The notes under the pieces: generated by a model | Database searches by the model: none | What the model saw: the letters and a program-made list of their open reading frames with translations, nothing else | What the model was told of the DNA's origin: nothing | Origin: an archaeon | Lineage (GTDB): Archaea > Asgardarchaeota > Thorarchaeia > Thorarchaeales > Thorarchaeaceae | DNA: 32,000 nucleotides | Direction of reading: 5' to 3' | Assembly: GCA_024275415.1 (NCBI GenBank) | Contig: JAJRZD010000081.1 | Location: 16,215-48,214 of the forward strand | Shown here: positions 8,489 through 23,962 of the stretch, in pieces | How the letters are laid out: each line of letters starts with the position of its first letter | Numbering within the stretch: the first letter of the stretch is position 1 | Translations under genes and position numbers: made by a program

Positions 8489-8980
8489 TTACTCTTTTTC
8501 AGTTTCTACCGTTGTAGCTTCTAATTCAAATTCGACATCAGGAGCAACAGGACCATAATGGAGCTTGCTCACATCCATTATCCCTTCGGTGTATGCTTCG
8601 TCATCACGCGTCATCTTCAACATTGCTGCACCACCAGATGCGACGATAGCAGAACCGATTCCCCACGAGGCATACCAGATCGTGTCAGCTACGTCCCATT
8701 GGAATGACACAAGAGTCAGGATAATGAACATGACTGACACAAAAGATGCGATAGATAGAAACAGGTTCTTCATCTTCCCTCGATCGGGTACGAAATAGCC
8801 AAGTAGCAACACCGACAACAGAATGGGGCCACCAAGTAGAAAGGCCAGATTGGAAGTTTCGAAGGCCGCTGACCCTGTGGTCATCTTGAAGATGAACTCA
8901 ACAAAATATGCGGTCATCATCACGACTCCAATCCAGAACATGCAATACCTATCTGCGTCCTCATTCAACCTGCGATTCAT
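8489..8980 (-). CDS. Hypothetical 4-TM membrane protein with acidic C-tail
   Basis: Four hydrophobic helices. Start overlaps the stop of the upstream fusion gene (ATGA at 8980-8977). Confidence 0.8.
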   Translation of the reverse strand: MNRRLNEDADRYCMFWIGVVMMTAYFVEFIFKMTTGSAAFETSNLAFLLGGPILLSVLLLGYFVPDRGKMKNLFLSIASFVSVMFIILTLVSFQWDVADTIWYASWGIGSAIVASGGAAMLKMTRDDEAYTEGIMDVSKLHYGPVAPDVEFELEATTVETEKE

Positions 8981-10932
8981 TGGATCATCCCCATTGCATC
9001 TTGATTCTCGTATTTCCTCTGCCAGTGCGTTGTACCGGCACGAATCTTGTTCTGAAGGATAAGATGGGCTCTAATGAAATCTACGGGCTTGGGGGGGCAT
9101 CCTGGCAGGTATACATCTACAGGCACGACCTTCTCAGGGGGAGTCATCAAGGAATATCCATCCCAGAACAACCCGCCACTGGCCGCACATTGCCCGAAGC
9201 TTATGACGTATTTTGGTTCGGGCATCTGTTCATAGATACGGCGTAGTCGGGGAGCCATCTTCTTCGTGAGGGAGCCCGCAATCCACAGCACATCTGCCTG
9301 CCTTGGACCAAATAGAGGAAGCATTCCAAAGCGCTCTATGTCCCAACGGGATGCTACTGCTGCTGCACCGTCCACCATGCAACACCCAATACCGTACTGT
9401 ACTGGCCACGGACTATGTGCACGGCCCCATCTCAGCATCCATTTGAGTGGCGGAAGGTTCTGCAACCATTTCAACAGGATAGGTGCAATTCGCCCAAACC
9501 CATTTCGGAAGAGATCATAGCCAATCCACATGAAGTACTTCCCAATTTTAAGGATGAACGGTAACCAGTAGGCAAAGATCTTCCCTGGATTAGCAATCTC
9601 GTTTTTATCGAGTTTCAATTTCGCAGCCCGTATCTTTGCAAGTCTGCGCTCGCCAAAGTATTGCGGAGCATAGTTTGCAAACCAAATCCCAATCCCATGG
9701 GGGTGTCCACCGTGTCGTTGTGCAATCTTGAATATGACAAAACTCTGGGACCATGAAAGCATGAAGAATCTGCGCCGCTCGTCTTCAAGGAAGTAGCCCA
9801 TGATTGTGACACCGTTCTTTGAGGTCACATACCCGTCAATGCCGGCCCTTGCTGACGCCTGCTCGAACTGAAAGTCAGAAAGCACAGCCTCCAGATTCTC
9901 TAATGGAGCAAAGGCCTGCCCGACGACCAATGTGGGCCCTGCCTTCTTCACGCGCATCGGATAGAATCGATCCTTCCATTCGTGGGCAGCAACATGCTCA
10001 TCATATACTGTGCCATGATATTGTTCTGTGATGTTGCGAACGACCTCAAAGCCTTCTTCAATCTCCTCCTCTGTCCCTTCGTAAGCGATGAGGACAGTAC
10101 CATGATGCACTGGGAATGGAAACGGCTCATCTGAGTCCCAAATCTGCTTCTTGAGGTCAGTGTATTTGGACTCCTCGAACTTGATCGTATAGGGTAGGGG
10201 TCCTTCTTCAATCATCTTCTCCATCGCAAGAACCATTTGATAGTTCTCAGGAAAGCTTACCACGATAGGCTTGACTGGCATAAGGGGCTTGACCCTAAGG
10301 CGAATCTTCGTAATGATGCCCAAGATGCCCTCGGTATCGCAAAAGAGGTCTGTGTCAGTACTGGTTATTATCTTGCCATCAGGCAGAACCACTTCGAAGC
10401 TTAGAACATTGTCATTGATCTTCCCGTATTTCAAGGAGCCAATCCCATCGCCTCCTTGAGCCACCCATCCACCGATAGTGGCTGACAACCCAGACGACGG
10501 ATAGCATCGGAGATCCAGTCCAACTCGGTTCAGTTCGAATTGAAGATTTGCCCAGGAAATGCCTGGTTCCACAAGAACCGTCTGGTTCGCTTCGTCAATT
10601 TCGAGAACATTATCCATCCTGCGCATATCAACAATGACCCCTCCCTTACGAGGGATCGCGCCTCCATACCCACTTGTTCCCGCACCTCTGGGAATGATAG
10701 GAATTTTCTCTTCGTTGGCAATCCTGTATAAAGATTGTATTTCTTCAGGAGTTTCTGGTTGAACAGCTGCATCAGGGTTGTTATTCATCATGTAGCCGAC
10801 CTGTTTGGGTAGTGCACCTACATCAGTAGAGAAAATGACTAACTCATGCTTTGATGTGATCAGCCGGTCGCCAAAAACGTGTGATAGTTTCTCGAATTGC
10901 TTTTTCTTGAGTCCCATCGGAGATGTCTCCAT
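8977..10932 (-). CDS. nuoB: Fusion: FAD-linked oxidoreductase (FAD_binding_4/FAD-oxidase_C, GlcD-like) + complex I subunit NuoB
   Basis: N-part has PRGAGTSGYGGAIP, VEPGI, ATIGGWVAQGG.G..SLKYG, EGILGIIT and ends at NPGKIF. C-part has WGRAHSPWPVQYGIGCC, PRQAD, MPEPKYVISFGQCAASGG, VDVYLPGCPP. Single uninterrupted frame; start could be ATG 10917. Confidence 0.93.
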   Translation of the reverse strand: METSPMGLKKKQFEKLSHVFGDRLITSKHELVIFSTDVGALPKQVGYMMNNNPDAAVQPETPEEIQSLYRIANEEKIPIIPRGAGTSGYGGAIPRKGGVIVDMRRMDNVLEIDEANQTVLVEPGISWANLQFELNRVGLDLRCYPSSGLSATIGGWVAQGGDGIGSLKYGKINDNVLSFEVVLPDGKIITSTDTDLFCDTEGILGIITKIRLRVKPLMPVKPIVVSFPENYQMVLAMEKMIEEGPLPYTIKFEESKYTDLKKQIWDSDEPFPFPVHHGTVLIAYEGTEEEIEEGFEVVRNITEQYHGTVYDEHVAAHEWKDRFYPMRVKKAGPTLVVGQAFAPLENLEAVLSDFQFEQASARAGIDGYVTSKNGVTIMGYFLEDERRRFFMLSWSQSFVIFKIAQRHGGHPHGIGIWFANYAPQYFGERRLAKIRAAKLKLDKNEIANPGKIFAYWLPFILKIGKYFMWIGYDLFRNGFGRIAPILLKWLQNLPPLKWMLRWGRAHSPWPVQYGIGCCMVDGAAAVASRWDIERFGMLPLFGPRQADVLWIAGSLTKKMAPRLRRIYEQMPEPKYVISFGQCAASGGLFWDGYSLMTPPEKVVPVDVYLPGCPPKPVDFIRAHLILQNKIRAGTTHWQRKYENQDAMGMIQ

Positions 10933-11118
10933 CAGGTTGTCCAGACACCACTTGCTTTGCGATTGACTTCATGCCTGCATAAAAACCTAGCGAGTGACCT
11001 ACATCTTAGCGTAGACTTGAATGGGAAGGTATTTGTGGACTTTAAGCTTGGTTCTGATAGCAAGAAAAAGGAATTCGATGCGATACACATTTCAACGCAA
11101 AACAGTGAGGTAAGAAAC

Positions 11119-12342
11119 ATGGAATTTCCTAGTCTCAAAGCATACGGACTCCAAGATATGCCTTTTACATGCGCCCAATGCAGCTTTTGCCAGGTTGGCA
11201 ATGGAGCGTGTCCCACATACAAAGTGAAACGCCTTGATAGCTACTCCGGTAAGGGGAAGATGGTGATTGCCCGTAACCTGTTGCAAGGACGCCTTAGACC
11301 ATCTGAGGGGCTCGAAGGGCTAAGGGATGCTATCTTCAATTGTACACTGTGTGGTGGGTGTGAAGAAATATGTCAGGTAGATATCCCCTTTGTGAAGATC
11401 TATCAGCTGTTACGACACGAGTTCCTAAAGAGAGACATGTGGCCTCATGGACTTATGATGGCTAGGGACACTCTTCTAAAGACAAACAACATCCAGGGAC
11501 AATCCCAGATGGATCGCATCGAAGGCTGGTCCTATTGGCATCCTGATGAAGATATGGTACTAGACCTCCAAGGAAAGAAAGCCAAGACCGCTTTCTTCGT
11601 TGGATGTACCTCGTCATTCAAAGGAGTGTCAATTCAGGCAACCATCGCTTCCACTCTCGTTTATGACAAGGCCGGAGTCGATTTTACACTTCTGGGCGAG
11701 GAGGAATGGTGCTGTGGCGCACCGATGATAATGACGGGAGATTTTGACACTGCTAGGAAGTATGCCATGCACAACATCGAGAAGTTCCATGAGCTCGGTG
11801 TTGAGAGAGTTGTCACAAATTGCCCAGGCTGTTACAAAATGTGGGCTCACGAATATCACGAGTTCTTGGATATTGACCACGGTCTTGAGATTCTGTACGG
11901 TGCCGAATTTCTGATGGAAATCCTTGATGAGAACAAGCTGGATTTCAATACCCCCTTGGATAAGGGCATCACGTTCCATGATGGATGTGATGCTGGTAGA
12001 AATGCTGGATTCTATGAGGAACCTCGGAAGGTCTTGGAGTACATTCCAGGAATCGAGTTCGAGGAGTTACCGCACAACAAGGCCAATAGTTACTGCTGTG
12101 GTTCAGGGGGCGTCCTTAGAGCTGTAGACAATGACTTTGCAGTCAAGATAAACGAGCTTAAGGTGAAGGACATTGAAGCCACAAATGCTGAAATCGTCGT
12201 ATCACACTGTCCCTCCTGCGTTGACTTCATGCATAACCAATTGCCCGGTGCGGGCTCAAGCAAGACCTCGAAGGATCTAGTCGTACTGGTTGCACAGGCA
12301 TTGGGACTAGAGTGGGAAGGTCTTGAGGAAATCTATGGCTAG
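11119..12342 (+). CDS. HdrD/GlcF/GlpC-like Fe-S oxidoreductase (2x[4Fe-4S] + two CCG domains)
   Basis: CAQCSFC...CP, CTLCGGCEEIC; FVGC...WCCG...CPGC and HDGC...YCCG...CPSC. Start moved to ATG 11119 after GAGGT. Confidence 0.9.
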   Translation: MEFPSLKAYGLQDMPFTCAQCSFCQVGNGACPTYKVKRLDSYSGKGKMVIARNLLQGRLRPSEGLEGLRDAIFNCTLCGGCEEICQVDIPFVKIYQLLRHEFLKRDMWPHGLMMARDTLLKTNNIQGQSQMDRIEGWSYWHPDEDMVLDLQGKKAKTAFFVGCTSSFKGVSIQATIASTLVYDKAGVDFTLLGEEEWCCGAPMIMTGDFDTARKYAMHNIEKFHELGVERVVTNCPGCYKMWAHEYHEFLDIDHGLEILYGAEFLMEILDENKLDFNTPLDKGITFHDGCDAGRNAGFYEEPRKVLEYIPGIEFEELPHNKANSYCCGSGGVLRAVDNDFAVKINELKVKDIEATNAEIVVSHCPSCVDFMHNQLPGAGSSKTSKDLVVLVAQALGLEWEGLEEIYG

Positions 12343-12407
12343 TACTGGACAGGCACACACACCGGCAGTAGGTAATCAAATAAGCCAGTGTGCATGTTAT
12401 AGAAATA

Positions 12408-13661
12408 ATGCCATTGCGCAAGGATGAACTAGAGGATAGGTGGCTATACGAGCAGATTGTCGAAAGAGTGCCTCCGTTCAAATGGTTACCGCCCACATTC
12501 GATGTGATGACTCAGCTGTTGTTAGTCGAAGCTGGGGGGATTCTCGCATTCCTGTACTTCCGTTTGCCAAATGAGGCTATCTTCTTAGGCACGTTGGCGA
12601 TACTCTATACGGTCGTCTGGTCCGCTGGCTGTCTCTATGTCATCCCTTTTTTGAGGAAACTACGGGATCCTACGAACGAAGAGGAACGCCGTGTCCTTAC
12701 AAAGTACAAACACGACCTTCTTGAGGATAAGATGCTCGAGCTGATTGGAAGCATCGCATGTTACATCGCAATCACGTCGTATCTGTTATATGACCAAGAA
12801 TTGCTTCACCGGTTCCTTGGTCAGGGCTACGGAAATCTCATTCTTTATGGACTCCTGCTAATCCTCTCATGGGATATTGCATACAGGTTATGGCTTTCTT
12901 TCTTCACGGCATTCTCATCGGCACGCAGATCCATAAGCTTAGCGAGAGCAGCAAGAAAGAGAAGAGGTCTCAAATACACAGCTTATTCAGAAGTGCAAAC
13001 GCTAAAATCACTAGATATGATCAATCTCTACTGGGCCGCTTCTGCAGTCCTGCTAGTCCCAATTGCCATTTCCACTGAGATATTGCTCTATTCAATCGTT
13101 GCATTCTTTCTTTCCATTGTGATCCTGTCATTCGTGAGCCTGCTGGCGATGGAAACGATACCCTGGTTCCCACCGGATGTCGAGGACATCCTCTTGAGAG
13201 AAAGGTTTGCCTATGTGGCTGCATACAACAAGTCAACCCTTCACACAACTCCAGTGATCTTCGTCTACGACGGGAAATACATCTATTTCGCAATCAGCGT
13301 GAAATCAGCAAAATACCGGTTGATAAAGAAGAACAATAGGATTGCAGTTCTTGTAGATATGAGGGACGCCAAGAACGCAATGAATAACAGGTCAATACTA
13401 ATGCGTGGGAAAGGACTTGTCCTCGGACAGGTCAGCCCCTTCGGACTTATCCGGTTGTTCCTGTACGGCCTGTGGATGTTGAGAGTAAGATCCCTGTTCT
13501 GGAAAAAATACCCCATGTATATGCGATATTATAAAGAAGAGGCTGACTCAATCCCGCTGGCATGGCAGGATAAGCCCTTCGTGTCACGGGTTCTCGTAAG
13601 GCTCCAAGTAGAGAAAGCGACATACTGGAGAGAGGCGTTGCCGACATTCCTAAGGGTGTGA
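12408..13661 (+). CDS. Membrane protein with C-terminal PNPOx-like (split-barrel flavin/F420/heme-binding) domain
   Basis: Several N-terminal TM helices, then FAYVAA...HTTPVIFVYDGKYIYF..SVKSAKYRLIKKNNRIAVLVD. Start ATG 12408 (track GTG 12390). Confidence 0.7.
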   Translation: MPLRKDELEDRWLYEQIVERVPPFKWLPPTFDVMTQLLLVEAGGILAFLYFRLPNEAIFLGTLAILYTVVWSAGCLYVIPFLRKLRDPTNEEERRVLTKYKHDLLEDKMLELIGSIACYIAITSYLLYDQELLHRFLGQGYGNLILYGLLLILSWDIAYRLWLSFFTAFSSARRSISLARAARKRRGLKYTAYSEVQTLKSLDMINLYWAASAVLLVPIAISTEILLYSIVAFFLSIVILSFVSLLAMETIPWFPPDVEDILLRERFAYVAAYNKSTLHTTPVIFVYDGKYIYFAISVKSAKYRLIKKNNRIAVLVDMRDAKNAMNNRSILMRGKGLVLGQVSPFGLIRLFLYGLWMLRVRSLFWKKYPMYMRYYKEEADSIPLAWQDKPFVSRVLVRLQVEKATYWREALPTFLRV

Positions 13662-13723
13662 TCTAATGAGTCTAACAATAAGAGTCGTTGGAGGGATATA
13701 AGAACGTGACAGCAAAGCATTGT

Positions 13724-14173
13724 ATGATGCGACTGCATACAGGAGCCAGAAAGATATTGCGTGAAGGGTTCTTCGCGTACTTCACAACTGGGAATCCAAG
13801 ATCGTTCCCACACATCACAACAATGTTCTATATCTGGGACGAGGAATCATGTACATTCTATGTGATCACATCTGAATCGACAAAGAAGGTGAAGAATATC
13901 CAGCAGAACCCAAATGTCGCCCTCACCATTGATGAGCGTGACCCGCTGTCGCCTGCTGGTAACTGTGGTGTCTTGGTTCGTGGAAAGGCAAGAGTAATCC
14001 CCATCGAGGAGATGGGTGACATCCTCATGAACAAATACTGGGCAAAATACCTTAACGTCCTCGGACAGGGTTTTCCTATGGGCTCACGCTTGGCGATAGA
14101 AATCACTCCTCGTGTGATTCACTATTGGAGCGGAATACACTTCTTCAAGTGGGTTGACCACAGACACGCATGA
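13724..14173 (+). CDS. PNPOx-like (pyridoxamine 5'-phosphate oxidase family) split-barrel protein
   Basis: PHITTMFYIWD...FYVITSESTKKVKNIQQNPNVALTID...GVLVRGKARVI. Confidence 0.85.
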   Translation: MMRLHTGARKILREGFFAYFTTGNPRSFPHITTMFYIWDEESCTFYVITSESTKKVKNIQQNPNVALTIDERDPLSPAGNCGVLVRGKARVIPIEEMGDILMNKYWAKYLNVLGQGFPMGSRLAIEITPRVIHYWSGIHFFKWVDHRHA

Positions 14174-14343: not shown

Positions 14344-15390
14344 TTACATTGCCGGAGGAGGTCGCGTCAGGTTACGGTACTGGATAGCACAAATCACGAC
14401 TAGGACTATTCCCGCAATGGCCAGATAGATCAGATTTGATGTAAAACCCTTGAGGATATACCCTGCTGTGAGGCTCAGTGTAATGAGAAGATGTAGCATG
14501 ATAGTCGCGGCGTTGGCGGGAACCAACCGATTCGGAGCCTCATACTCTCGCATCATGATTCGTACTCCCAAATAGCCCAACGGAATTAACGTCAGAGCGA
14601 GGAGCGATTCAAACGCAATCAGCCCACTCACGACACAAACGACAATCCATACGAACACAGCTGCTATAAGAACAGCATAGCCCTTCGCAGCTTTCTCGCG
14701 TCCAAGCCGCACCACAACCGTTCTTTTTCCAGAATCCCTGTCTGCTGCATAGTCCTGAAATTCATTGATATAGAGAATCCCAGCAACAAGAAGTGCTGTA
14801 GGTATCGACGCAAGTATTGGCTCAAGAAGGATGTTCTGAGCTTGAACGTAGTAGGATCCGAGTACCATCAGAACGCCAAAATTAAGGCCGATAAATATCT
14901 CCCCAATGCCACGCTTCACCAATCTGAACGGAGGTGCGGAGTAGAACAGCCCAGACGCAGCACCTATCATGCCAAAAACAAGGATCAGGATGCCTCGAGT
15001 CAGAGCGAGATATACACCTATCAAACCAGTGATTGCAAAGAAGACCATAGATTCAGCCAGCACCTCACGAGGTGTTAGAAGACCAAGCTGAATCATCCGA
15101 CTCCCACCAGTGAAAGGACGGACGAATTCCGTGTTTATATCATCCGAACCCGTGTTCTCTGGAGTGTGGTCGAAATAATCGTTCGACACATTGGCTGCAA
15201 TGTGAAGAAATGCTCCTGCAATGACCGTCAAGAGAAAGACATCAAGCAGGAAAACCCCAGTCGTAGCCCAAGCTATCGCTGTGCCCAGAAAGACAGGTGA
15301 GATAGACGCGGTCAAGAATGGTGCTCTCAATTCCAGAAAGAACGCCTTCTTCTTAGATATTTGCATTGGCTCCTGAATGATTTCCGTCAT
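14344..15390 (-). CDS. menA: 1,4-dihydroxy-2-naphthoate polyprenyltransferase (UbiA family)
   Basis: LRAPFLTAS, ANVSNDYFD, FTGGSRMIQ, YSAPPFRL, INEFQDYAADRDSGKRTVVVRLG. Confidence 0.85.
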   Translation of the reverse strand: MTEIIQEPMQISKKKAFFLELRAPFLTASISPVFLGTAIAWATTGVFLLDVFLLTVIAGAFLHIAANVSNDYFDHTPENTGSDDINTEFVRPFTGGSRMIQLGLLTPREVLAESMVFFAITGLIGVYLALTRGILILVFGMIGAASGLFYSAPPFRLVKRGIGEIFIGLNFGVLMVLGSYYVQAQNILLEPILASIPTALLVAGILYINEFQDYAADRDSGKRTVVVRLGREKAAKGYAVLIAAVFVWIVVCVVSGLIAFESLLALTLIPLGYLGVRIMMREYEAPNRLVPANAATIMLHLLITLSLTAGYILKGFTSNLIYLAIAGIVLVVICAIQYRNLTRPPPAM

Positions 15391-15541: not shown

Positions 15542-16567
15542 ATGGATACATTGGATTACCTTTCCGACAGACTCGACAAAACGTCGGACAGCATTTTTCT
15601 CACAGACCTTCTCAAGAATGAAGATATCAAATCACGATTAGAGATGATCAATTCAGAGATAGATATCCATCTAGGAAAGGATGGAGAACCAAAGATTCTG
15701 TACGAAACGGCAAAGCATCTCCTCAAGGCAGGCGGGAAGAGACTACGTTCGTTGTTAGTAGTGCTCTGTTGTGAAGCGGTCGGAGGTGACATCACCAAGG
15801 CAGTTCCATTCTCTGTAGCCATCGAGCTGGCACAAACGGCCAGTCTTATCCACGATGATGTGATTGATGAGGACACACTCCGCAGAGGTGTGCGGTCAAC
15901 ACACGAACAGTTCGGCCATAAGATGGCAATTTTGGCTGGAGACCTCCTTGTGGCTCAGGCTGTCAAGATGATTGGAAGTCTTGGCACACCAGAGATAATT
16001 GTACAGATTGCAGAGGAGGGAATCAGGATGTGCGAGGGGGAGGCTGCAGATATACTCCTCAATGCTGACAACCCGAATGCCATGACAATCGAAAACTATC
16101 TTGAGATGATTCAGAAGAAGACTGTATCATTCATCAAGGCTGCAACGTCGGTGGGTGCTTCCATCGGCAAGGGCACGAAGGAGCAAATCAGCTCGTTACG
16201 CAGGTATGGAGAGAATCTGGGATTCGCATTCCAGATCCGTGATGATGTGCTCAACATAATCTCATCGTCTGACATCTCAGGAAAGGATGAATACAGTGAC
16301 CTCCTTTCGAAAAGATGCACATTCCCTTTGGTTCACGCTTTGGACAAATCATCGCCAGAGGATAGAGAGCGGTGTTTGCAGGCACTATCTGAGGGTGACA
16401 TGTCTGTCGCCCTTCATCTCGTTGAAAGGACTCGGGCAATCCCAGCTTCCATCGAGAAAACTACAGAGTACATCAGAAAGGCAAAGGCCACATTGAAAGA
16501 GCACGATTTTGTGAACGCACATCTTCTAGAACAGGTAGCCGATTTCGTTCTCCAGAGACTGCACTAG
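15542..16567 (+). CDS. trans-Polyprenyl diphosphate synthase, probably medium/long-chain
   Basis: GGKRLR, ASLIHDDVIDEDTLRRG (FARM), AILAGDLL, KKT, FQIRDDVL. Confidence 0.9.
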   Translation: MDTLDYLSDRLDKTSDSIFLTDLLKNEDIKSRLEMINSEIDIHLGKDGEPKILYETAKHLLKAGGKRLRSLLVVLCCEAVGGDITKAVPFSVAIELAQTASLIHDDVIDEDTLRRGVRSTHEQFGHKMAILAGDLLVAQAVKMIGSLGTPEIIVQIAEEGIRMCEGEAADILLNADNPNAMTIENYLEMIQKKTVSFIKAATSVGASIGKGTKEQISSLRRYGENLGFAFQIRDDVLNIISSSDISGKDEYSDLLSKRCTFPLVHALDKSSPEDRERCLQALSEGDMSVALHLVERTRAIPASIEKTTEYIRKAKATLKEHDFVNAHLLEQVADFVLQRLH

Positions 16568-16568
16568 A

Positions 16569-17681
16569 TCAAGCATTCTGGAACAATGTATCCGCATTTT
16601 GAATGAGTGTGCTGAAGAGTTTAACCTGCGCCGTCAGACCAGTAATCTGCTTATCGAGGTTCTCCCAGACGGCAGTCATCTCATCTGATGAAGGAATCTC
16701 AGGATCTTCCTCTTTCAACCTATCTAACAACAACGCACCCCTTGGCAGACTGGAACACAACTCTGCCACACTATCAATGTGCTGTTTATAATGATTCAAA
16801 ATATCCTGTATGACTTGGAAATTCCGATTCAGCAGTTGTTTGAACTTCTCAACCAAAGGATGGTTTCTGAAATCAGGCTTCAGATGCCATGAGCTTCTAA
16901 TCAACGGGGGATCATTTCGGTTCAGCAGCGACTTGGGATAGCGAGTTGCACTCTGAATTATTCTCCAACGGTCACGAGCCTCATTTTCAAGGGCTTGTGC
17001 AAGATTCTTGATAGAAGTCAGATAGGACTTTAGGAGTTCACGGTTCATCTTCCCTTGATGTCCTTTCAACACCATAGTCAATGTGTAATCAGAAACCAAG
17101 TCCAAGTTGATGGCAGAACTCCTCATGGCATCGGCATACTTCTGGACCTCATTCACTACCTGGATCAAATCGACGGGAACCTTGTACTGCTCTAATGCGG
17201 GAATATCAAGGAACTTTGTGTCTATTGAATCGTGAATGGAAGTGATTAGTTCCCACTCGATTGTTTCAAGCGCGTTCATGAATTTGGTTTGGTCGTGGAG
17301 ATTGGATGTTATTTCCCGAATTGAATCGTCGCCAGTAGTTGCAGTCAATGAAAAAATACGGTTCATCATGTTGCTCAGAATGACCCTGTACTTGGTACTC
17401 CTTCGGACGAGCACATTGCGAGATTCCAAGAGGTCAAGGATATCTACCTCAGTACTTCCTCGTAACTTGATAGGTGCAATATTGACCTCAGCATCAAATT
17501 GCACAGGGAGAGATTCTCCACATTCGTAACTGGTCAGCAGTTGACCTATTAGTGTGGCATGGACACAGAGTTCGCTCAGACCTGTAATAGCCTTGACAGC
17601 AGCAGAGCTTGCATATCCTGTACTCAGTAGCAGTTCTCTGGCAGAGTCCTCACTTTCAAGAAACTTGGAAGAATAACTCAT
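16569..17681 (-). CDS. Hypothetical protein, predicted mostly helical
   Basis: 370-codon ORF filling the gap between convergent and divergent genes; no motif recognised. Confidence 0.75.
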   Translation of the reverse strand: MSYSSKFLESEDSARELLLSTGYASSAAVKAITGLSELCVHATLIGQLLTSYECGESLPVQFDAEVNIAPIKLRGSTEVDILDLLESRNVLVRRSTKYRVILSNMMNRIFSLTATTGDDSIREITSNLHDQTKFMNALETIEWELITSIHDSIDTKFLDIPALEQYKVPVDLIQVVNEVQKYADAMRSSAINLDLVSDYTLTMVLKGHQGKMNRELLKSYLTSIKNLAQALENEARDRWRIIQSATRYPKSLLNRNDPPLIRSSWHLKPDFRNHPLVEKFKQLLNRNFQVIQDILNHYKQHIDSVAELCSSLPRGALLLDRLKEEDPEIPSSDEMTAVWENLDKQITGLTAQVKLFSTLIQNADTLFQNA

Positions 17682-17883
17682 TATAACATCTCCTGCCCCA
17701 GCTCACTTATAGAAATAATGTGTTTGGATACGCTAAATTTACTGTTCGTGTTGTTTGTTGCGGTTGTTTCAGAATGCACAAGGAAACCAACTGAGTGTTC
17801 CATAAAGCTTATTATTTACATTTCGTAACTACTCGTCAATCTGGGTCTTGAGTTTTGAACATCGGCAAGACTAGGAACGCTAT

Positions 17884-19629
17884 ATGCTTGATGGAAGGAT
17901 GATTAGAGTGGTAAACCTTCGAAAACTAGCCGAGATTGTGGGAGAAGATTACTTTTCGTCTGAAGATTACATGTTGGACTTGTACTCTGCTGATATCGCT
18001 GCGCTCCCCGAGATGGTGAATGACCTGCTCCGTACAAAAGCTGATGCGGTTGCTCAACCCACTTCTACCGAAATCGTTTCTAGAATCCTGAAATATTGTA
18101 TGGACAAGAGAATTCCTGTGATTCCTAGGGGGCATGGTACGAGCGGGTACGGAGGAGTCGTCCCTACTAGGAGGGGTCTCGTTCTTGAGATGACCCGAAT
18201 GAATGAGATCCATTCTATCGACAAAGGGAAAATGACAGTCGAAGTGGGAGCTGGGATTATATGGGGACATCTATTAGAAGAACTCGAGGATGAGGGGCTC
18301 ACCGTCGCAGCCTATCCAACCAGCGCACCATCCAGCACCGTGGGAGGGTGGGTTGCTGCTGGGGGTACTGGCATCGGAAGCACAAAATACGGTGGCATTC
18401 GAGAACAGGTCGTTGACCTTGAGGTCGTTTTACCCGATGGGACTGTAATAAGAACCGCAAAAGACGGCAAAGTAATCGCACAGTTCCTCAAGGGGAGTGA
18501 TTACGTTTTCAACCCGGGACATGATCTATACCAATTCGGGTTCCTTGAAGACGAAAGGGTCAATGATAATGTGACGGATCTATTCGTAGACAGCAATGGT
18601 GCATTGGGAGTCATAACAAAGGTAGTCCTGAAAATCATACCACTGCGGAATCTCAAGCCCCTAGTTGCATCCTTTCGAAGCGGTCAACTTATGACCCATG
18701 CTCTTGAGAATATCGTTGCGGCCACACGACCGTTCTTCCTGCATTTCATAACCGGTGATTTCTATCAGATGCAGGCAGAACTGGGACTGGCTCCGAAAAC
18801 ATCCGGGGAGTGGATTATCCTAGCAACTTACGAAGGAACAGAAGACGAGCTGGCTGGCGAAGTCGAGAAGTTCCACCACTTTGTGAACCGGAACAATGGT
18901 ATCGTGGAGTCGGAAGAAATTGCACAGCATGAGTGGGAAGAGAGGTTCTATCCCATGCGGATCAAGCGTCTGGGACCCAGTCTTGCACCCTCAGAGGTCT
19001 ACGTCCCACTAGACAACCTTGAGGAATTCCTAGAAGCCGTTGACCAACATTTCAAGAACGAGCGGTATGCAATTGAAGGGGCTGTCACCAACAAAGGAGA
19101 GGTTGCCGCGCTAGCATGGTTCCTTGATGATGAGCGGAAGAAGATATCGTTCCTGATGGGCTGGTACAGATCCCTTGACTTCATCGATATCGGTCTTAAG
19201 AAAGGAGGCAGGGCTTATAGTATTGGGATGTGGAATGCGCCTCTTTCACGTTCATTCTATGGAGAAAAGCGGCTCAAGACAATGTATAAGGTCAAACGCC
19301 AGACAGACTCAAAGAACCTGATGAATCCAGGGAAAGTATTCTCAGGCCCTCTTAATCTATCATTTAGGTTCAACCTATTGATCCTATTTGCTGTGACAAT
19401 CGCCATACCAACTGTCTTGTTCCTTGCAGGACTATTGGTTCCAGAAATCACTAATGCCTATATCCCATGGCTGGTTCCAGATACGTTTTCGAAATTACTG
19501 TGGCTCATCGGACTGGGGCTAATCCTTGGTGTGGTTGCGATTGAGGTCGCGAACATGATCCCGATAGGATTCGTACTGACTATGGGTAGGCCATTCATGC
19601 GATTGTTTCGAAGAATATGGAGGAGCTAG
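17884..19629 (+). CDS. FAD-linked oxidoreductase (GlcD-like) with C-terminal membrane anchor
   Basis: PRGHGTSGYGGVVP, STVGGWVAAGG.G..STKYG, GALGVIT, NPGKVF, then about two TM helices. Close paralogue of the fusion's FAD part (HEWEERFYPMRIKRLGP vs HEWKDRFYPMRVKKAGP). Confidence 0.88.
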   Translation: MLDGRMIRVVNLRKLAEIVGEDYFSSEDYMLDLYSADIAALPEMVNDLLRTKADAVAQPTSTEIVSRILKYCMDKRIPVIPRGHGTSGYGGVVPTRRGLVLEMTRMNEIHSIDKGKMTVEVGAGIIWGHLLEELEDEGLTVAAYPTSAPSSTVGGWVAAGGTGIGSTKYGGIREQVVDLEVVLPDGTVIRTAKDGKVIAQFLKGSDYVFNPGHDLYQFGFLEDERVNDNVTDLFVDSNGALGVITKVVLKIIPLRNLKPLVASFRSGQLMTHALENIVAATRPFFLHFITGDFYQMQAELGLAPKTSGEWIILATYEGTEDELAGEVEKFHHFVNRNNGIVESEEIAQHEWEERFYPMRIKRLGPSLAPSEVYVPLDNLEEFLEAVDQHFKNERYAIEGAVTNKGEVAALAWFLDDERKKISFLMGWYRSLDFIDIGLKKGGRAYSIGMWNAPLSRSFYGEKRLKTMYKVKRQTDSKNLMNPGKVFSGPLNLSFRFNLLILFAVTIAIPTVLFLAGLLVPEITNAYIPWLVPDTFSKLLWLIGLGLILGVVAIEVANMIPIGFVLTMGRPFMRLFRRIWRS

Positions 19630-19632
19630 ATA

Positions 19633-20010
19633 ATGCAAGGATTTCCTAATTATCATATGACCATTCTACTTGGACTCCCAGCAATCATTCTGTTGGGTAT
19701 TGGTGCACTACTTTACGAGATATCAAGAGAGAAGTACACACGACACCACGGCATTTGCGCAGGTCTTTCGATTCTTCTTACGACAATCAACATCATCGGC
19801 ATCATCCCAACAACTATCATTGTACTGACAGGGACATGGTTCGATTTATTTCACATCGCTCACATTCTTATCGGGATCGTTGGATATATCTTCGGAGTGG
19901 TCGCGTTCATCACTGGAATTTCGGGAATAAGAACAAAAATACCCGGATACATCGCTCTTATCTCGTGGACGACGGTATTCGTGATGGGCTATGTGCAGTA
20001 TCTACTATGA
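19633..20010 (+). CDS. Small 4-TM membrane protein, DUF420/cytochrome b561-like His pattern
   Basis: Four TM helices; H8, H38-H39 (RHHG), H74/H77 (FHIAHILIG). Family call by resemblance only. Confidence 0.6.
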   Translation: MQGFPNYHMTILLGLPAIILLGIGALLYEISREKYTRHHGICAGLSILLTTINIIGIIPTTIIVLTGTWFDLFHIAHILIGIVGYIFGVVAFITGISGIRTKIPGYIALISWTTVFVMGYVQYLL

Positions 20011-20020
20011 GGTGGTTGCT

Positions 20021-21499
20021 ATGACTGAGATTGTTCAAGAAATCAAAGACATTTCTGATGTCGAATGGGTAAGTACACGGATCACAGAACGGCTTGCTGC
20101 TAGTGGTGATACGACTGGTATCCCTTACTACCACTTCAGATGGAAGAAAAAGTGGCTCGCAGATTATGTGGCTTGGCCTAGAAATGCAGAACAAGTCGCG
20201 GCCATCATCAAGTTCGCGCAGAAAAACCAAATCGCAGTGGTTCCCAGAGGTGGCGGAACATGTTACTACGGGTCGGCTAGCCCCACACGAGGGGGAGTGA
20301 TTGTCGATACGAAACCGCTAGACAAGATCATTGAAATCAACAAGGAGAAGATGTGGGCTCATATCCAGTCAGGAATAGTGTGGGAGGTTCTTGATAGGAA
20401 GCTCGCAAAGCAAGGATTGGCCTTGAAAGTGACACCTCAAAGCGCACCTGCATCGACTATAGCTGGATGGTTAGCCATTGGGGGAAAGGCTGGAATTGGG
20501 ACTCCTAAATATGGGACGATACTTGATAACATATTAGAGATGGAAGTGGTTCGGCCAGATGGAACCATCGAAACAATCACTGGAGCTGACATGGAAACAT
20601 TCTATGGAACAAGTGGGATTGCAGGTATCGTCGTATCACTGAAACTAAGCATCCGTGAGATGCCCGAAAGAACAGATGGACTCATGTTCTCCTTCGATTC
20701 GATTGAACATGCATGCCATTTAACAGAGGAATTGGCAAGTACCAGCATAAAGCCAGTCTATCTACGAGTCACAGATCCCGAGTATGAGTGGAGGTCTCAA
20801 GGAGGATTACCCCAGAACTCGCGGAAGGGATGCTTCGTATTGGTCACCTATGATGGGACAGCAGACCAAGTAGAAAAAGGAATCGAGTACGCTCGAAACC
20901 TGTTCAAGAAGGCTGGTGGGACTGACGTAGGAAAGGAACATTATCAAAAGAGCTGGGATGACAGATTCATCATTGAGATGAAACTCAAGCTGGAAGTGCC
21001 GACTCTGTCGATGCAGAACTTCTGGATGAAACCCAAGAACGTAAGTCACCTTGCTAGGAAGATGTATGAGATTGCAGACAAGTACAAGATCAACTCCTGC
21101 TATTATATGGTCTTGGGAGCTGGGGGGATGGTCAGGTTCTGTGCGTTCGCTCCGTCCGACCATCGCTACTGGATGCATTTCATGTCAGGGAAAGCAATGC
21201 TACACAAACTTGTCAAGATGGGGTTCAAATATGACGCAAAGCTCTACACGTTGGGGCTTCAGAACACGGTGTATCTCAAGAAATACCAGAAGAAAGAGTA
21301 TAACCACTTCAAGACGGTCAGGGATCAATGGGATCCAAACGGGCTGATGAATCCGGACAAACTCACTGGCTCGAATCTGTCCTATTCTCGTCTCAACTTG
21401 ATGTTTACCATGAATGGGTGGATTCGCAGACTGATGACACTGTTCCGGGTTGCTAGGAACATCCTGCAAGTACCAAGATGGGTAAAGGAGAGGACATGA
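20021..21499 (+). CDS. FAD-linked oxidoreductase (GlcD/GlcE-like), third paralogue
   Basis: PRGGGTCYYGSASP, STIAGWLAIGG..GIG..KYG, GTSGIAGIV, MNPDK. Start ATG 20021 after GAGGTG. Confidence 0.87.
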   Translation: MTEIVQEIKDISDVEWVSTRITERLAASGDTTGIPYYHFRWKKKWLADYVAWPRNAEQVAAIIKFAQKNQIAVVPRGGGTCYYGSASPTRGGVIVDTKPLDKIIEINKEKMWAHIQSGIVWEVLDRKLAKQGLALKVTPQSAPASTIAGWLAIGGKAGIGTPKYGTILDNILEMEVVRPDGTIETITGADMETFYGTSGIAGIVVSLKLSIREMPERTDGLMFSFDSIEHACHLTEELASTSIKPVYLRVTDPEYEWRSQGGLPQNSRKGCFVLVTYDGTADQVEKGIEYARNLFKKAGGTDVGKEHYQKSWDDRFIIEMKLKLEVPTLSMQNFWMKPKNVSHLARKMYEIADKYKINSCYYMVLGAGGMVRFCAFAPSDHRYWMHFMSGKAMLHKLVKMGFKYDAKLYTLGLQNTVYLKKYQKKEYNHFKTVRDQWDPNGLMNPDKLTGSNLSYSRLNLMFTMNGWIRRLMTLFRVARNILQVPRWVKERT

Positions 21500-21502
21500 A
21501 TC

Positions 21503-22720
21503 ATGCGACGACTATTCACAAAGAACTTTGATTTTGATCCTGACAAGATCGTGATGTGCAGCAACTGCTCCACATGCAGATGGACTTGCACGAGCTATGA
21601 GGAATGGGGTAGTGAGGCCATGTTCGCAGGAGGGAGGCTCAGGATGCTCAGAGCTTATGTCGAGAAGAACCTCCCTATAGACGAACACTTCGTCGAAGCG
21701 ATTTATTCCTGCTCGGTCTGTGAACAATGTGTAGAACGTTGCCCTATCAAGGTTCCCTACGGCGAAATCGTTGAAGACCTTAGAAAAAGACTGGTCGAGA
21801 TTGGTAAAGGACCGTATGGCAAGCTCGGTGCAATGGGGGATCGGGTGTTTCACGAGCACAACCCCTACGGAGGAGAAGCAAAAGAGCGGGCGAACTGGAT
21901 CACACCAGACCTAAAGATATCGGATGACTCGAACATAGGTTATTTCGTTGGGTGTACTGCGTCATATCGGAGACCTGAGATAGGTGTAGCCACTGTCAGG
22001 ATGCTCAACCATTTTGGTATTGAGCCTCAGATCCTTGGTACTGATGAGTATTGTTGCTGCTCTCCGCTGATCAGGACAGGTCAGATTGTCATGCCCATAT
22101 TCAAGAAACAGGAAGATGGCTCGAAGAAGAAAGTGGGCACTCTTGATGTCAAGTCGATAATCAACCACAACATCGAGGAGTTCAAGAGCAGAGGGGTAGA
22201 CCAAATCATCTATTCATGCTCGGGGTGCTTTAGAACCACGACGTTAGACTGGCCCAAGTTCTATCGAGAAAAGGGAGGTATTCTACCATTCTCCACACAA
22301 CACCTCTCGCAATTCCTTGCAGTGAAATTGAAGAAGGGTGAGATGAAGTGGAAGAACGGGTACAATGAACGAGTGACGTACCACGACCCATGCCATCTTG
22401 GAAGACATGTGGGCGTGTTCGAAGAGCCTCGTGAGGTCATCAAGAGCATCCCCGGCATCGACCTTGTAGAAATGGACAGGAACAGATACGAGTCAAAATG
22501 TTGTGGAGCAGGAGGGGGACTGAAAGGAGGATTCGGCGAGAATGCGACAAATATAGCCTCGCGTAGGATCGAACAGGCATTAGAAGTCGGTGCGACGACT
22601 TTGATATCGTCCTGTGTGTTTTGCAAACTTAATTTCCTCGATGCTGTCAAGAGAGACGGACATGACATCAAGATAGTGAATATCGAAGACCTCTTCAGCG
22701 ATCTCATGGAACTTGGATAG
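21503..22720 (+). CDS. HdrD/GlcF-like Fe-S oxidoreductase (2x[4Fe-4S] + two CCG domains)
   Basis: CSNCSTCRWTC, CSVCEQCVERCP; FVGC...YCCC...CSGC; YHDPCHLGR...CCGAGG...CVFC. Confidence 0.9.
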   Translation: MRRLFTKNFDFDPDKIVMCSNCSTCRWTCTSYEEWGSEAMFAGGRLRMLRAYVEKNLPIDEHFVEAIYSCSVCEQCVERCPIKVPYGEIVEDLRKRLVEIGKGPYGKLGAMGDRVFHEHNPYGGEAKERANWITPDLKISDDSNIGYFVGCTASYRRPEIGVATVRMLNHFGIEPQILGTDEYCCCSPLIRTGQIVMPIFKKQEDGSKKKVGTLDVKSIINHNIEEFKSRGVDQIIYSCSGCFRTTTLDWPKFYREKGGILPFSTQHLSQFLAVKLKKGEMKWKNGYNERVTYHDPCHLGRHVGVFEEPREVIKSIPGIDLVEMDRNRYESKCCGAGGGLKGGFGENATNIASRRIEQALEVGATTLISSCVFCKLNFLDAVKRDGHDIKIVNIEDLFSDLMELG

Positions 22721-22771: not shown

Positions 22772-23962
22772 TCACAGGTACTCCATAATCCGCCTAAGAA
22801 GAGGAGTCAGAAAGGACAACGGGCGGGGTAGTCTGCACTTGATGACATCCTCCAGATACCTTGACCCAGTTATCCGCATTGCGACATCCGTGAGCGAATC
22901 GCTCATCATCATTAGGTCTGCGACCCGTAAGATTGCAAGAGACGCATACAGTTGCGCCCCAAACTCCTGTTTCCATGCAGATTCGTACATCGAAAGGGGA
23001 GAACCATTCTCCAGATGAGCGATTGTGACCTCGCCTGCTATGGAACCGGCAGCCAGTGCCGTAGGTATCCCACCACCGTTGGATGCCATGACATGCCCTG
23101 CCGCATCACCCACCAACATCGTATTGTCTGAAAAGGTACGCTTCAGAGGGCCGCCCACAGGAATGCTGGCCCCTACACGAGCGATAATCTTTCCGTCCTT
23201 CAGGCATCCACCAAGGATGTTCTTGTTTCGTACCAGATGTTGTAGATAGGCGCCTAGGGACTTGCCAGAATCCATATAGGAACGCCGAAGTCCAAAACCC
23301 ACATTCGCTGAATGTCGAGATTTCGGGATGACCCATGCGTAACCACCAGGTGCTACCTGATGTCCGAAGAACATCATGGGCTCCACGATGGGTTCTCTGA
23401 TGTCCTCGATGACGTACTGTAATGATTGGCTGATGTCACTCTTAGCATCAGGATAGGAAAAGCCCAATGATCTCGCAATGATAGAGTGAGGGCCGTCAGC
23501 ACCAATCACCACACGGGCCCTGAACTCCTTGATTCCCGTCTTTGTCCGAGCAAAGACCCTATTGTCCGCAGTTTTTGCGACCACACGGGTTCCAAGCAAC
23601 AGCTCGGCCCCAGAGTCCACAGCCTTCGCTGCAAGGTGCTTGTCGAAAAGTGCCCGGTCGATGACATTCGCTTCAAGAGGGAAGTGATATTCATCGAACC
23701 GTGGTGAGAACAGTATCATCTCACTGGTTGGATACGTAGTAATGTCTGATGGTACACGGGAAATGGACTGTAACCGAGGGCATTTCGGGAACATGGATGC
23801 CATCTCACGAGGAGTGGGAAGGAACTCTCCACACTGCACAGGGACACCGACCTCACGACGACGTTCGATTATCAGTGTCCTTAGTCCTTGTGATGCTACT
23901 TGACCGGCAGTCACACTTCCCGCTGGTCCTGCACCCACAATAATGACATCATATTCGGTCAC
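22772..23962 (-). CDS. Geranylgeranyl reductase family FAD oxidoreductase
   Basis: YDVIIVGAGPAG, VQCGE, IDRALFD, IGADG, PGGYAWVIPK, LVGDAAGHV...GGGI; GTG start. Confidence 0.9.
   Translation of the reverse strand: MTEYDVIIVGAGPAGSVTAGQVASQGLRTLIIERRREVGVPVQCGEFLPTPREMASMFPKCPRLQSISRVPSDITTYPTSEMILFSPRFDEYHFPLEANVIDRALFDKHLAAKAVDSGAELLLGTRVVAKTADNRVFARTKTGIKEFRARVVIGADGPHSIIARSLGFSYPDAKSDISQSLQYVIEDIREPIVEPMMFFGHQVAPGGYAWVIPKSRHSANVGFGLRRSYMDSGKSLGAYLQHLVRNKNILGGCLKDGKIIARVGASIPVGGPLKRTFSDNTMLVGDAAGHVMASNGGGIPTALAAGSIAGEVTIAHLENGSPLSMYESAWKQEFGAQLYASLAILRVADLMMMSDSLTDVAMRITGSRYLEDVIKCRLPRPLSFLTPLLRRIMEYL

Follow-up and report, generated by a model that had tools for sequence, protein, structure and literature searches.

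The 32,000-nt stretch of thorarchaeal DNA analysed here (Thorarchaeaceae; contig JAJRZD010000081.1 of assembly GCA_024275415.1, positions 16,215 to 48,214 of the forward strand; hereafter the window) lies on contig C62 of a 3.5-Mb genome (G000) that is 92.9% complete. At 17884-22720 it carries a compact operon of four genes whose products may form a membrane-bound flavin/Fe-S oxidoreductase. All four genes are on the + strand, and the list of open reading frames (ORFs) gives successive gaps of 3, 10 and 3 nt, as had been stated in an earlier reading of the window from its letters (hereafter the sequence-only reading). The same reading described the products as a FAD protein with a transmembrane (TM) tail, a 4-TM protein, a second FAD protein and a CCG-domain protein, and Pfam matches together with a hydropathy scan bear this out. 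None of the features of the operon is attributable to a chance pattern.

17682..17883, + strand: intergenic region, presumed promoter; 202 nt without an ORF, shared with the divergent gene at 16569-17681, A+T-rich at ~17800-17826
17884..19629, + strand: gene 1 (P0001, 'FAD1TM'); 581 aa, clade-I GlcD-fold flavoprotein with a C-terminal two-helix membrane hairpin
19351..19587, + strand: membrane hairpin of gene 1 (aa ~490-568), followed by a conserved basic end, GRPFxRL
19633..20010, + strand: gene 2 (P0002, 'TM4'); 125 aa, four-helix membrane protein, with GGAGG ahead of its ATG
20021..21499, + strand: gene 3 (P0003, 'FAD2'); 492 aa, clade-II cytoplasmic GlcD-fold flavoprotein
21503..22720, + strand: gene 4 (P0004, 'CCG2'); 405 aa, HdrD/GlcF-like, carrying two CxxCxxCxxxC motifs plus a pair of five-Cys CCG domains

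The 10-nt gap between genes 2 and 3 follows from taking the ATG at 20021 as the start of gene 3. The longest ORF, which opens at 19991, shares 20 nt with gene 2; the ATG at 20021 is preceded, 5-9 nt upstream, by a Shine-Dalgarno-like GGTGG, and it is more likely the true start, with 19991 an over-extension. In several relatives an over-extended gene 3 frame masks the small 4TM gene.

Both flavoproteins belong to the GlcD/LDHD/AGPS branch of the VAO/PCMH FAD-linked oxidases, with both diagnostic Pfam domains above cut-off: FAD_binding_4 (E 1e-39 in gene 1, E 2.4e-36 in gene 3) and FAD-oxidase_C. C-terminal to its flavin domain, gene 1 has two membrane segments (~aa 492-524 and 533-568; Kyte-Doolittle hydropathy). 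It has more than 120 full-length homologues of 573-581 aa in thorarchaeal genomes, and its tail recurs at 38-62% identity over 94 aa in 34 of 80 other thorarchaeal genomes, which fall in the same five genera as those holding the 4TM gene. Two copies of this tail-anchored flavoprotein (FADTM) occur only in genomes of genus g1. In the window, about 7 kb from the operon, lies a flavoprotein related to gene 1, and next to it a CCG protein:

8977..10932, - strand: clade-I flavoprotein fused to NuoB; Pfam FAD_binding_4, FAD-oxidase_C and Oxidored_q6, NuoB family 180 bits
10897..12342, + strand: clade-I CCG protein, divergent from the fusion; Fer4_8 and two CCG domains, start probably slightly later

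Gene 1 had been called a paralogue of the NuoB-fused flavoprotein that carries TM helices where the fusion carries NuoB, and both points hold. The two proteins are 35% identical over 482 aa (E 2e-95) and group in the same clade (SH-aLRT 96), and the membrane hairpin of gene 1 occupies the position of NuoB. Gene 3 is more distant, at 29% identity with the fusion and 28% with gene 1; gene 4 and the CCG protein at 10897-12342 share 26%.

Gene 4 matches Pfam Fer4_8 and two CCG domains (E 5e-29). Its translation contains two ferredoxin-type cysteine sets (C19/22/25/29 and C70/73/76/80) and two complete five-Cys sets (C151...C184-186...C239/242 and C297...C333/334...C371/374), and thus the two [4Fe-4S] motifs and two five-Cys CCG domains by which HdrD is recognised. 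It scores 196 bits against TfrB (cut-off 385) and 63.5 bits against GlcF (cut-off 333), though the GlcF-type domain set is present. The nearest solved relative is mycobacterial EtfD (9ojn_A; phmmer E 1.5e-33), with residues 64-383 of gene 4 aligning to EtfD 406-721 and the motifs HDPC.LGRH and CCGAGG kept. In the hydropathy scan neither gene 3 nor gene 4 has a membrane segment.

The glcDEF operon of E. coli (b2979, b4468 and b4467) likewise encodes two FAD_binding_4 proteins together with a single protein that has two Fe-S motifs and a pair of CCG domains, and the sequence-only reading called the operon GlcDEF-like, with one dehydrogenase chemistry deployed twice, here and on the pump. An ordinary glycolate or D-lactate dehydrogenase that has gained membrane anchors would fit this domain set, and glcD is the best NCBIfam name, and LDHD is the best fold for gene 3. 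However, the scores are far under the cut-offs: for TIGR00387 (glcD; cut-off 567.9) gene 1 reaches 161.8 bits and gene 3 reaches 145.6 bits, and for NF008439 (GlcE, the short type of second flavoprotein; cut-off 284) the scores are 34 and 30 bits. Both flavoproteins are full length and carry the whole FAD-oxidase_C domain. The His/His/Glu-His metal ligands of mouse LDHD and E. coli GlcD, which lie in HxGDGNxH (HAGDGNMH in GlcD) and GEHG, are replaced in every paralogue of the cluster, by GAVTNKGEV and GRAYSIG in gene 1 and by LGAGGMVRF and AKLYTLG in gene 3. At the second motif the paralogues hold a conserved x-Y-[ST]-[IL]-G-x-x-N. E. coli GlcD and another paralogue in the same genome (on contig C73) retain both motifs. 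The operon differs from glcDEF further in its added 2-TM hairpin and 4-TM subunit, and in having flavoproteins from different clades with separate CCG partners. We regard the GlcDEF-type explanation as largely refuted and give it very little weight; judged by residues and scores, the operon does not appear to encode a GlcDEF glycolate or lactate enzyme, and the claim of shared chemistry is not supported.

The C73 gene (G000:C73:8973-9452) encodes a GlcD-fold protein that keeps the LDHD/GlcD metal ligands and is likely a true 2-hydroxy acid dehydrogenase. Yet another GlcD-fold paralogue (G000:C11:53619-54173) has the motif SHQHGVG, which we take to resemble the His loop of alkyl-dihydroxyacetone phosphate synthase (AGPS).

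A maximum-likelihood tree of 33 flavoproteins with SH-aLRT support separates two clades. Gene 1 falls in clade I (96) with the NuoB fusion and the remaining tail-anchored paralogues; gene 3 falls in clade II (100) with FAD2b from a sister cluster described below and the flavoproteins of two other families of the phylum, f9 and f24. The CCG tree mirrors it, with CCGnuo (the protein at 10897-12342), CCGa and CCGb in one group (97), CCG2 with CCG proteins of other families (88) and CCGc on a long branch. This mirroring implies that flavoprotein and CCG genes were duplicated as pairs, so that each flavoprotein has its own CCG partner. The sequence-only reading had named unrelated clades as a pattern that would refute its proposal; the paralogues are related, and gene 1 sits in the clade of the fusion.

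Further copies of these genes are found on contigs C38 and C99 of the same genome. The last gene of C38 overlaps the first ORF of C99 in sequence, which indicates that the two contigs join, and together they carry a 10-gene sister cluster of the operon:

C38/C99, genes 1-3 in order: fusion of a CX4CH surface domain with a 4TM homologue of gene 2; FAD2b; CCGc
C38/C99, genes 4-6 in order: amine-oxidase-like flavoprotein; CCGa; FADTMa
C38/C99, genes 7-10 in order: 203-aa CxxCH surface protein; 165-aa His-rich membrane protein; CCGb; FADTMb

In other thorarchaeal genera this row runs straight into TM4-FAD2-CCG2, so that all form one 13-gene cluster, as in G239, which is assembled into one contig of 3.16 Mb. 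The 13-gene cluster holds five FAD/CCG pairs as well as membrane and surface proteins with CxxCH-like motifs, and it adjoins CCGnuo, the FAD-NuoB fusion, nuo genes and a MenA-like gene. In these genomes FADTM and TM4 are 70-300 nt apart. The detached four-gene form, placed between polyprenyl synthase and geranylgeranyl reductase (GGR) genes, was seen only in genus g1 (G000, G002 and G004). From this comparison, the layout of two FAD genes and one CCG gene appears to have arisen in g1 by a split of the cluster together with a duplication of the tail-anchored flavoprotein. That both halves keep a FADTM copy may hint that this protein matters to both sides. Linkage to nuo, the loss of which the sequence-only reading would have counted against itself, persists in relatives: the operon or its parent cluster adjoins nuo, FAD-NuoB or CCG genes in six genomes (G002, G004, G008, G011, G020 and G239). 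In G008 a 770-aa surface protein with PKD-like domains (L032:6002-8314), related to the 203-aa CxxCH protein, sits between CCGnuo and the FAD-NuoB fusion gene.

Because the trees mirror each other and a 70-300 nt gap precedes the 4TM gene in the other genera, we rank a heterotrimer of two flavoproteins and one CCG protein below a triad of genes 2-4 accompanied by an orphan clade-I copy. The conserved unit, as judged from gene order across genomes, would then be the 4TM, FAD and CCG proteins. Thorarchaeal genomes share this order, as do eight of nine loci taken from f9 and f24, the ninth being that of G228. In a census of 301 genomes of the phylum, the gene 2 family was found in 57, including 33 of 76 in the thorarchaeal family f1, 19 of 68 in f9 and 4 of 7 in f24. 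NuoB was found in only 2 of the 68 f9 genomes and in none of the 7 from f24, which implies that the triad has no need of complex I.

This distribution bears on whether genes 1 and 3 complete the NuoB-fused enzyme as hetero-oligomers docked on the complex I-like pump, the alternative that the sequence-only reading had offered. The genes lie 7 kb from the fusion, the parent cluster adjoins nuo genes in several genera, and GlcD-fold enzymes are usually dimers. In the thorarchaeal sample, 53 genomes have a fusion-type NuoB and 34 have the 4TM family; 29 have both, and the five with the 4TM family but no detected fusion are all incomplete or fragmented assemblies. Against this, 24 sampled genomes, several of them 95-98% complete, show the fusion and no 4TM gene, and in seven whole genera (g5, g8, g9, g10, g13, g14 and g16) the fusion is present while both the 4TM gene and the tail of gene 1 are absent. 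The triad also occurs in families where NuoB is almost never found, and gene 1 has a membrane anchor of its own. We therefore consider completion of the fused enzyme improbable. The counts support an independent membrane enzyme and disfavour an obligate hetero-oligomer with the fusion. Of the earlier proposal of a non-pumping branch that feeds the quinone pool, independence from the pump is upheld by the triads of NuoB-poor families, and reduction of a quinone is our inference at most.

Gene 2 is the least familiar member of the triad. No Pfam family matched it, and AlphaFold2 (AF2) predicts a four-helix bundle (predicted local distance difference test score, pLDDT, 85.5). Across 14 sequences of its family H39, H74 and H77 are invariant and H8 is nearly so. 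It is a small family: at 50% identity, 1.84 billion proteins yield 57 clusters of it, and every named member is from Asgard archaea. Most members have an N-terminal surface beta-domain with a conserved CH motif, which gene 2 itself lacks, and at all loci examined the gene stands beside Hdr-like CCG proteins. A search of the ESM Atlas returned only unnamed clusters and weak leads to DUF420 and cytochrome b561 (cosine 0.88 and 0.81). No NarI/HdrE-like chain appeared among the fold matches of gene 2, and a missing match is not proof of difference. We regard the family as a previously undescribed small membrane subunit, whose probable role is that of a haem- or carrier-binding anchor.

The ninth locus suggests which partner of the 4TM protein is constant. 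In G228, of family f9, two tandem cassettes (L080:7307-14360) each encode a surface-4TM protein, a protein of 420-460 aa whose C-terminal end is an HdrC-like dicluster domain, and a CCG protein of the HdrB-like sort, with no GlcD-fold flavoprotein. Since the 4TM gene here twice precedes HdrC-like and HdrB-like proteins, its constant partner appears to be an Hdr-type Fe-S protein, with the GlcD-fold flavoprotein as an exchangeable module beside them.

The closest model for how such parts may work together is EtfD, in whose structure electrons leave the flavin of electron-transfer flavoprotein (ETF) through a pair of CCG-bound clusters and then a pair of [4Fe-4S] clusters, and go on to haem b and to menaquinone (PMC13083937). 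The soluble Fe-S/CCG module of EtfD (PDB 9OJN) is homologous to gene 4, and its cofactor logic is the one that we propose by analogy for the operon. The two differ in that the membrane part of EtfD is a fused five-helix HdrE/NarI-like domain, in place of which we find a separate, apparently unrelated four-helix protein, and in their donors: EtfD takes electrons from soluble ETF, and the operon encodes a GlcD-fold flavoprotein of its own. For the operon, haem and quinone are suppositions. We give an even chance to the reading that the operon encodes a membrane-bound flavin/Fe-S oxidoreductase of the HdrDE, EtfD or GlcDEF kind, passing electrons from a substrate through FAD and Fe-S/CCG clusters to the His-rich 4TM protein and on to a membrane carrier. 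In this scheme, a cytoplasmic substrate other than a classical 2-hydroxy acid would be oxidised at FAD, and electrons would pass through the clusters of gene 4 to gene 2, which would probably hold haem b in place of the haem domain of EtfD. The final acceptor would be a prenylated carrier made with the neighbouring MenA-like prenyltransferase. Electron flow could equally be reversed. Gene 1 would be an extra copy of the flavoprotein type also fused to NuoB, self-anchored by its two-helix hairpin and duplicated when g1 split the 13-gene cluster, while its co-evolved CCG partner (CCGb) is encoded elsewhere in the genome.

Several observations weigh against this scheme. The cluster paralogues all lack the metal ligands, and the AF2 model of gene 3 (pLDDT 87.6) fits the folds of mouse LDHD and AGPS best and equally well (TM ~0.75, E 1e-28), a tie that gives no substrate call. 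Contacts between the subunits are proposed from gene order alone. For gene 2, the profile matches are weak (DUF420 at E 0.23 for P0002; Cytochrom_B561 at E 0.029 for the homologue P0129), and the fold matches are generic four-helix bundles (Foldseek best E 0.16, to a COX3 bundle and Dcytb; VIA Z ~12, alongside designed proteins) from which no family can be assigned. The positive-inside rule, and where the surface domain sits in the longer family members, place three of the four conserved histidines at the outer face, so bis-His ligation of a membrane-spanning haem pair is not obvious. Some genes for making the cofactors were also not found. Besides MenA we found no Men or Mqn gene for a head group (MqnA/D (PF02621), MqnC and MenD were not found, and MenB-like matches are under cut-off), and a menaquinone pool as the carrier is an assumption. 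Neither ALAD nor porphobilinogen (PBG) deaminase was found in the 92.9%-complete genome, nor ALAD in five thorarchaeal relatives, which weakens the case for haem in the 4TM subunit but does not exclude it, because Ccm genes are present.

These Ccm genes lie directly upstream of the window (G000:C62:1-11220), on the contig that holds the nuo operon, and encode a full system I set of CcmA, B, C and E and a 684-aa CcmF; in G005, G020 and G239 Ccm genes adjoin the cluster. The same upstream region also encodes a 473-aa multihaem cytochrome c (Cytochrome_C554/C552, DmsE-like). Haem-handling genes near the triad and the cluster count in favour of the proposed scheme. Thorarchaeota seem unable to make their own haem, and a Ccm set found without ALAD and PBG deaminase suggests haem uptake or another pathway. 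In f9 (loci L075, L076, L080, L081, L079 and L082) and f24 (L077 and L078), the triads adjoin either a CcmF/NrfE-like lyase (four loci) or a haem o synthase-like UbiA protein (four loci; TIGR01473 200-217 bits, cut-off 210). The lyase stands alone, at loci whose 4TM surface domain has a single-Cys or CX4CH motif.

A cytochrome outside the membrane could also take part if electrons ran in the reverse direction. In that case the membrane subunit would take electrons from a reduced carrier or an outside cytochrome, as in HdrDE or DsrMK, and the CCG protein or the flavoproteins would reduce a cytoplasmic acceptor such as a disulfide, making the operon a terminal or recycling reductase rather than a dehydrogenase. 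The two complete CCG domains of gene 4 are like those of HdrD, DsrK and TmcB. In paralogous 4TM genes a surface domain bearing a CX4CH or xCH motif is fused on; the same island contains a CxxCH surface protein along with Ccm genes and the multihaem cytochrome; and the layout recalls the Tmc, Hmc and DsrMKJOP complexes. The 4TM protein of the operon itself, however, has no surface domain, and EtfD shows that the same module can run towards quinone. We consider a reductase role unlikely for this operon, while taking it more seriously than any of the other alternatives. HdrDE of Methanosarcina, DsrMK, TmcBC and HmcEF resemble the operon in pairing a cytoplasmic HdrD-type protein with a small integral membrane redox subunit, and the paralogous cassettes add an outer-face cytochrome-like protein, as in that group. 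They differ in that HdrE is a five-helix NarI-like dihaem cytochrome b, for which the four-helix gene 2 gave no match (no Pfam family, no NarI fold among the matches), and in the flavoprotein added here.

Three genes near the operon match prenyl-handling families:

14344..15390, - strand: MenA-like prenyltransferase; TIGR00751 113-114 bits, cut-off 102
15542..16567, + strand: polyprenyl diphosphate synthase; Pfam polyprenyl_synt E 2e-65, with no NCBIfam equivalog reaching cut-off
22772..23962, - strand: GGR family protein, convergent with gene 4; TIGR02032 229 bits, cut-off 159

The MenA-like gene adjoins the operon or the cluster in G002, G004, G008, G011, G023 and G239, and MenA-like and polyprenyl synthase genes are adjacent in six thorarchaeal genomes, which speaks for the carrier step of the proposed scheme. 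These neighbours raise a further explanation, that the flavin/Fe-S module acts on a membrane-bound prenylated cofactor, a haem or quinone precursor, held by the 4TM protein. Three families have a gene of the UbiA family as neighbour (MenA-like in Thorarchaeota, haem o synthase-like in f9 and f24), P0002 weakly resembles DUF420/CtaM, and in G008 a PNPOx-MenA fusion lies inside the cluster. Five FAD/CCG pairs beside a complex I-like pump are hard to explain biosynthetically, however; the flavoproteins are of the GlcD/LDHD/AGPS subfamily, and every similarity to CtaM is under significance. Cofactor tailoring is on balance a quite improbable role.

In the G008 fusion (L031:16876-18414) the PNPOx-like domain is N-terminal to the MenA-like protein; free PNPOx-like genes (12390-14173 in the window) come after CCGnuo in all thorarchaeal loci seen. 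The gene divergent from the operon (16569-17681, - strand) encodes a 370-aa protein without a family match, whose homologue in G002 (48% identity) is found at the opposite side of the operon, flanked by GGR and CCG2.

Returning to an electron-transferring membrane enzyme, two other known systems are useful for comparison. Methanomassiliicoccales and Methanomethylicia have a complex I-like (Fpo-like) pump without NuoEFG, and their GlcD and HdrD proteins, which are either soluble or joined in one fusion, are proposed heterodisulfide reducers. Co-location of hdrD and glcD has been described (PMC6421429). The thorarchaeal genes are similar in the co-location of GlcD-like and HdrD-like proteins with an archaeal complex I-like pump, and differ in their dedicated membrane anchors and in the lack of a methanogenesis context. 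In the type E form of succinate:quinone reductase, the CCG-domain protein SdhE is the membrane-side partner of a quinone-reducing flavoenzyme (PMC2754724), as we suppose for gene 4; SdhE differs in being a monotopic anchor without a separate TM subunit and in having a flavoprotein of the SdhA type.

In databases these proteins are named 'FAD-binding oxidoreductase', '(Fe-S)-binding protein' or 'heterodisulfide reductase subunit D'. A literature search found no description of the cassette, most subscription-journal papers lying outside the search. What is new is the family of membrane subunits and the flavoprotein clades; the overall kind of enzyme is the known Hdr/EtfD/GlcDEF-type oxidoreductase. 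The operon is a detached piece of a larger, apparently undescribed respiratory gene island. It is possible, though we hold it doubtful, that the 4TM proteins are Asgard-specific haem-bearing partners of Hdr-like proteins and that the thorarchaeal island encodes a complete undescribed chain for anaerobic respiration or extracellular electron transfer. The components of that chain would tentatively be the five FAD/CCG pairs, three 4TM-type subunits, CxxCH/CX4CH surface proteins, Ccm, the multihaem cytochrome, a MenA-type carrier and the FAD-NuoB pump.

No known relatives of eukaryotes are closer than the Asgard archaea, and models of eukaryote origin depend centrally on how these archaea gain energy. 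Thorarchaeota are usually regarded as fermenters or acetogens. The operon and its parent cluster point to modular membrane electron transport beside a complex I-like pump and Ccm and MenA-like genes, with Hdr-like Fe-S proteins, unusual GlcD-fold flavoenzymes that lack the known catalytic site, and the new family of small membrane subunits as its building blocks. If this is true, they would offer concrete targets that can be expressed, namely a 125-aa putative haem protein and a three-subunit core, for testing thorarchaeal respiration. HdrD-type proteins, so far paired at the membrane with HdrE/NarI-like domains or with the monotopic SdhE, would then gain a third kind of partner.

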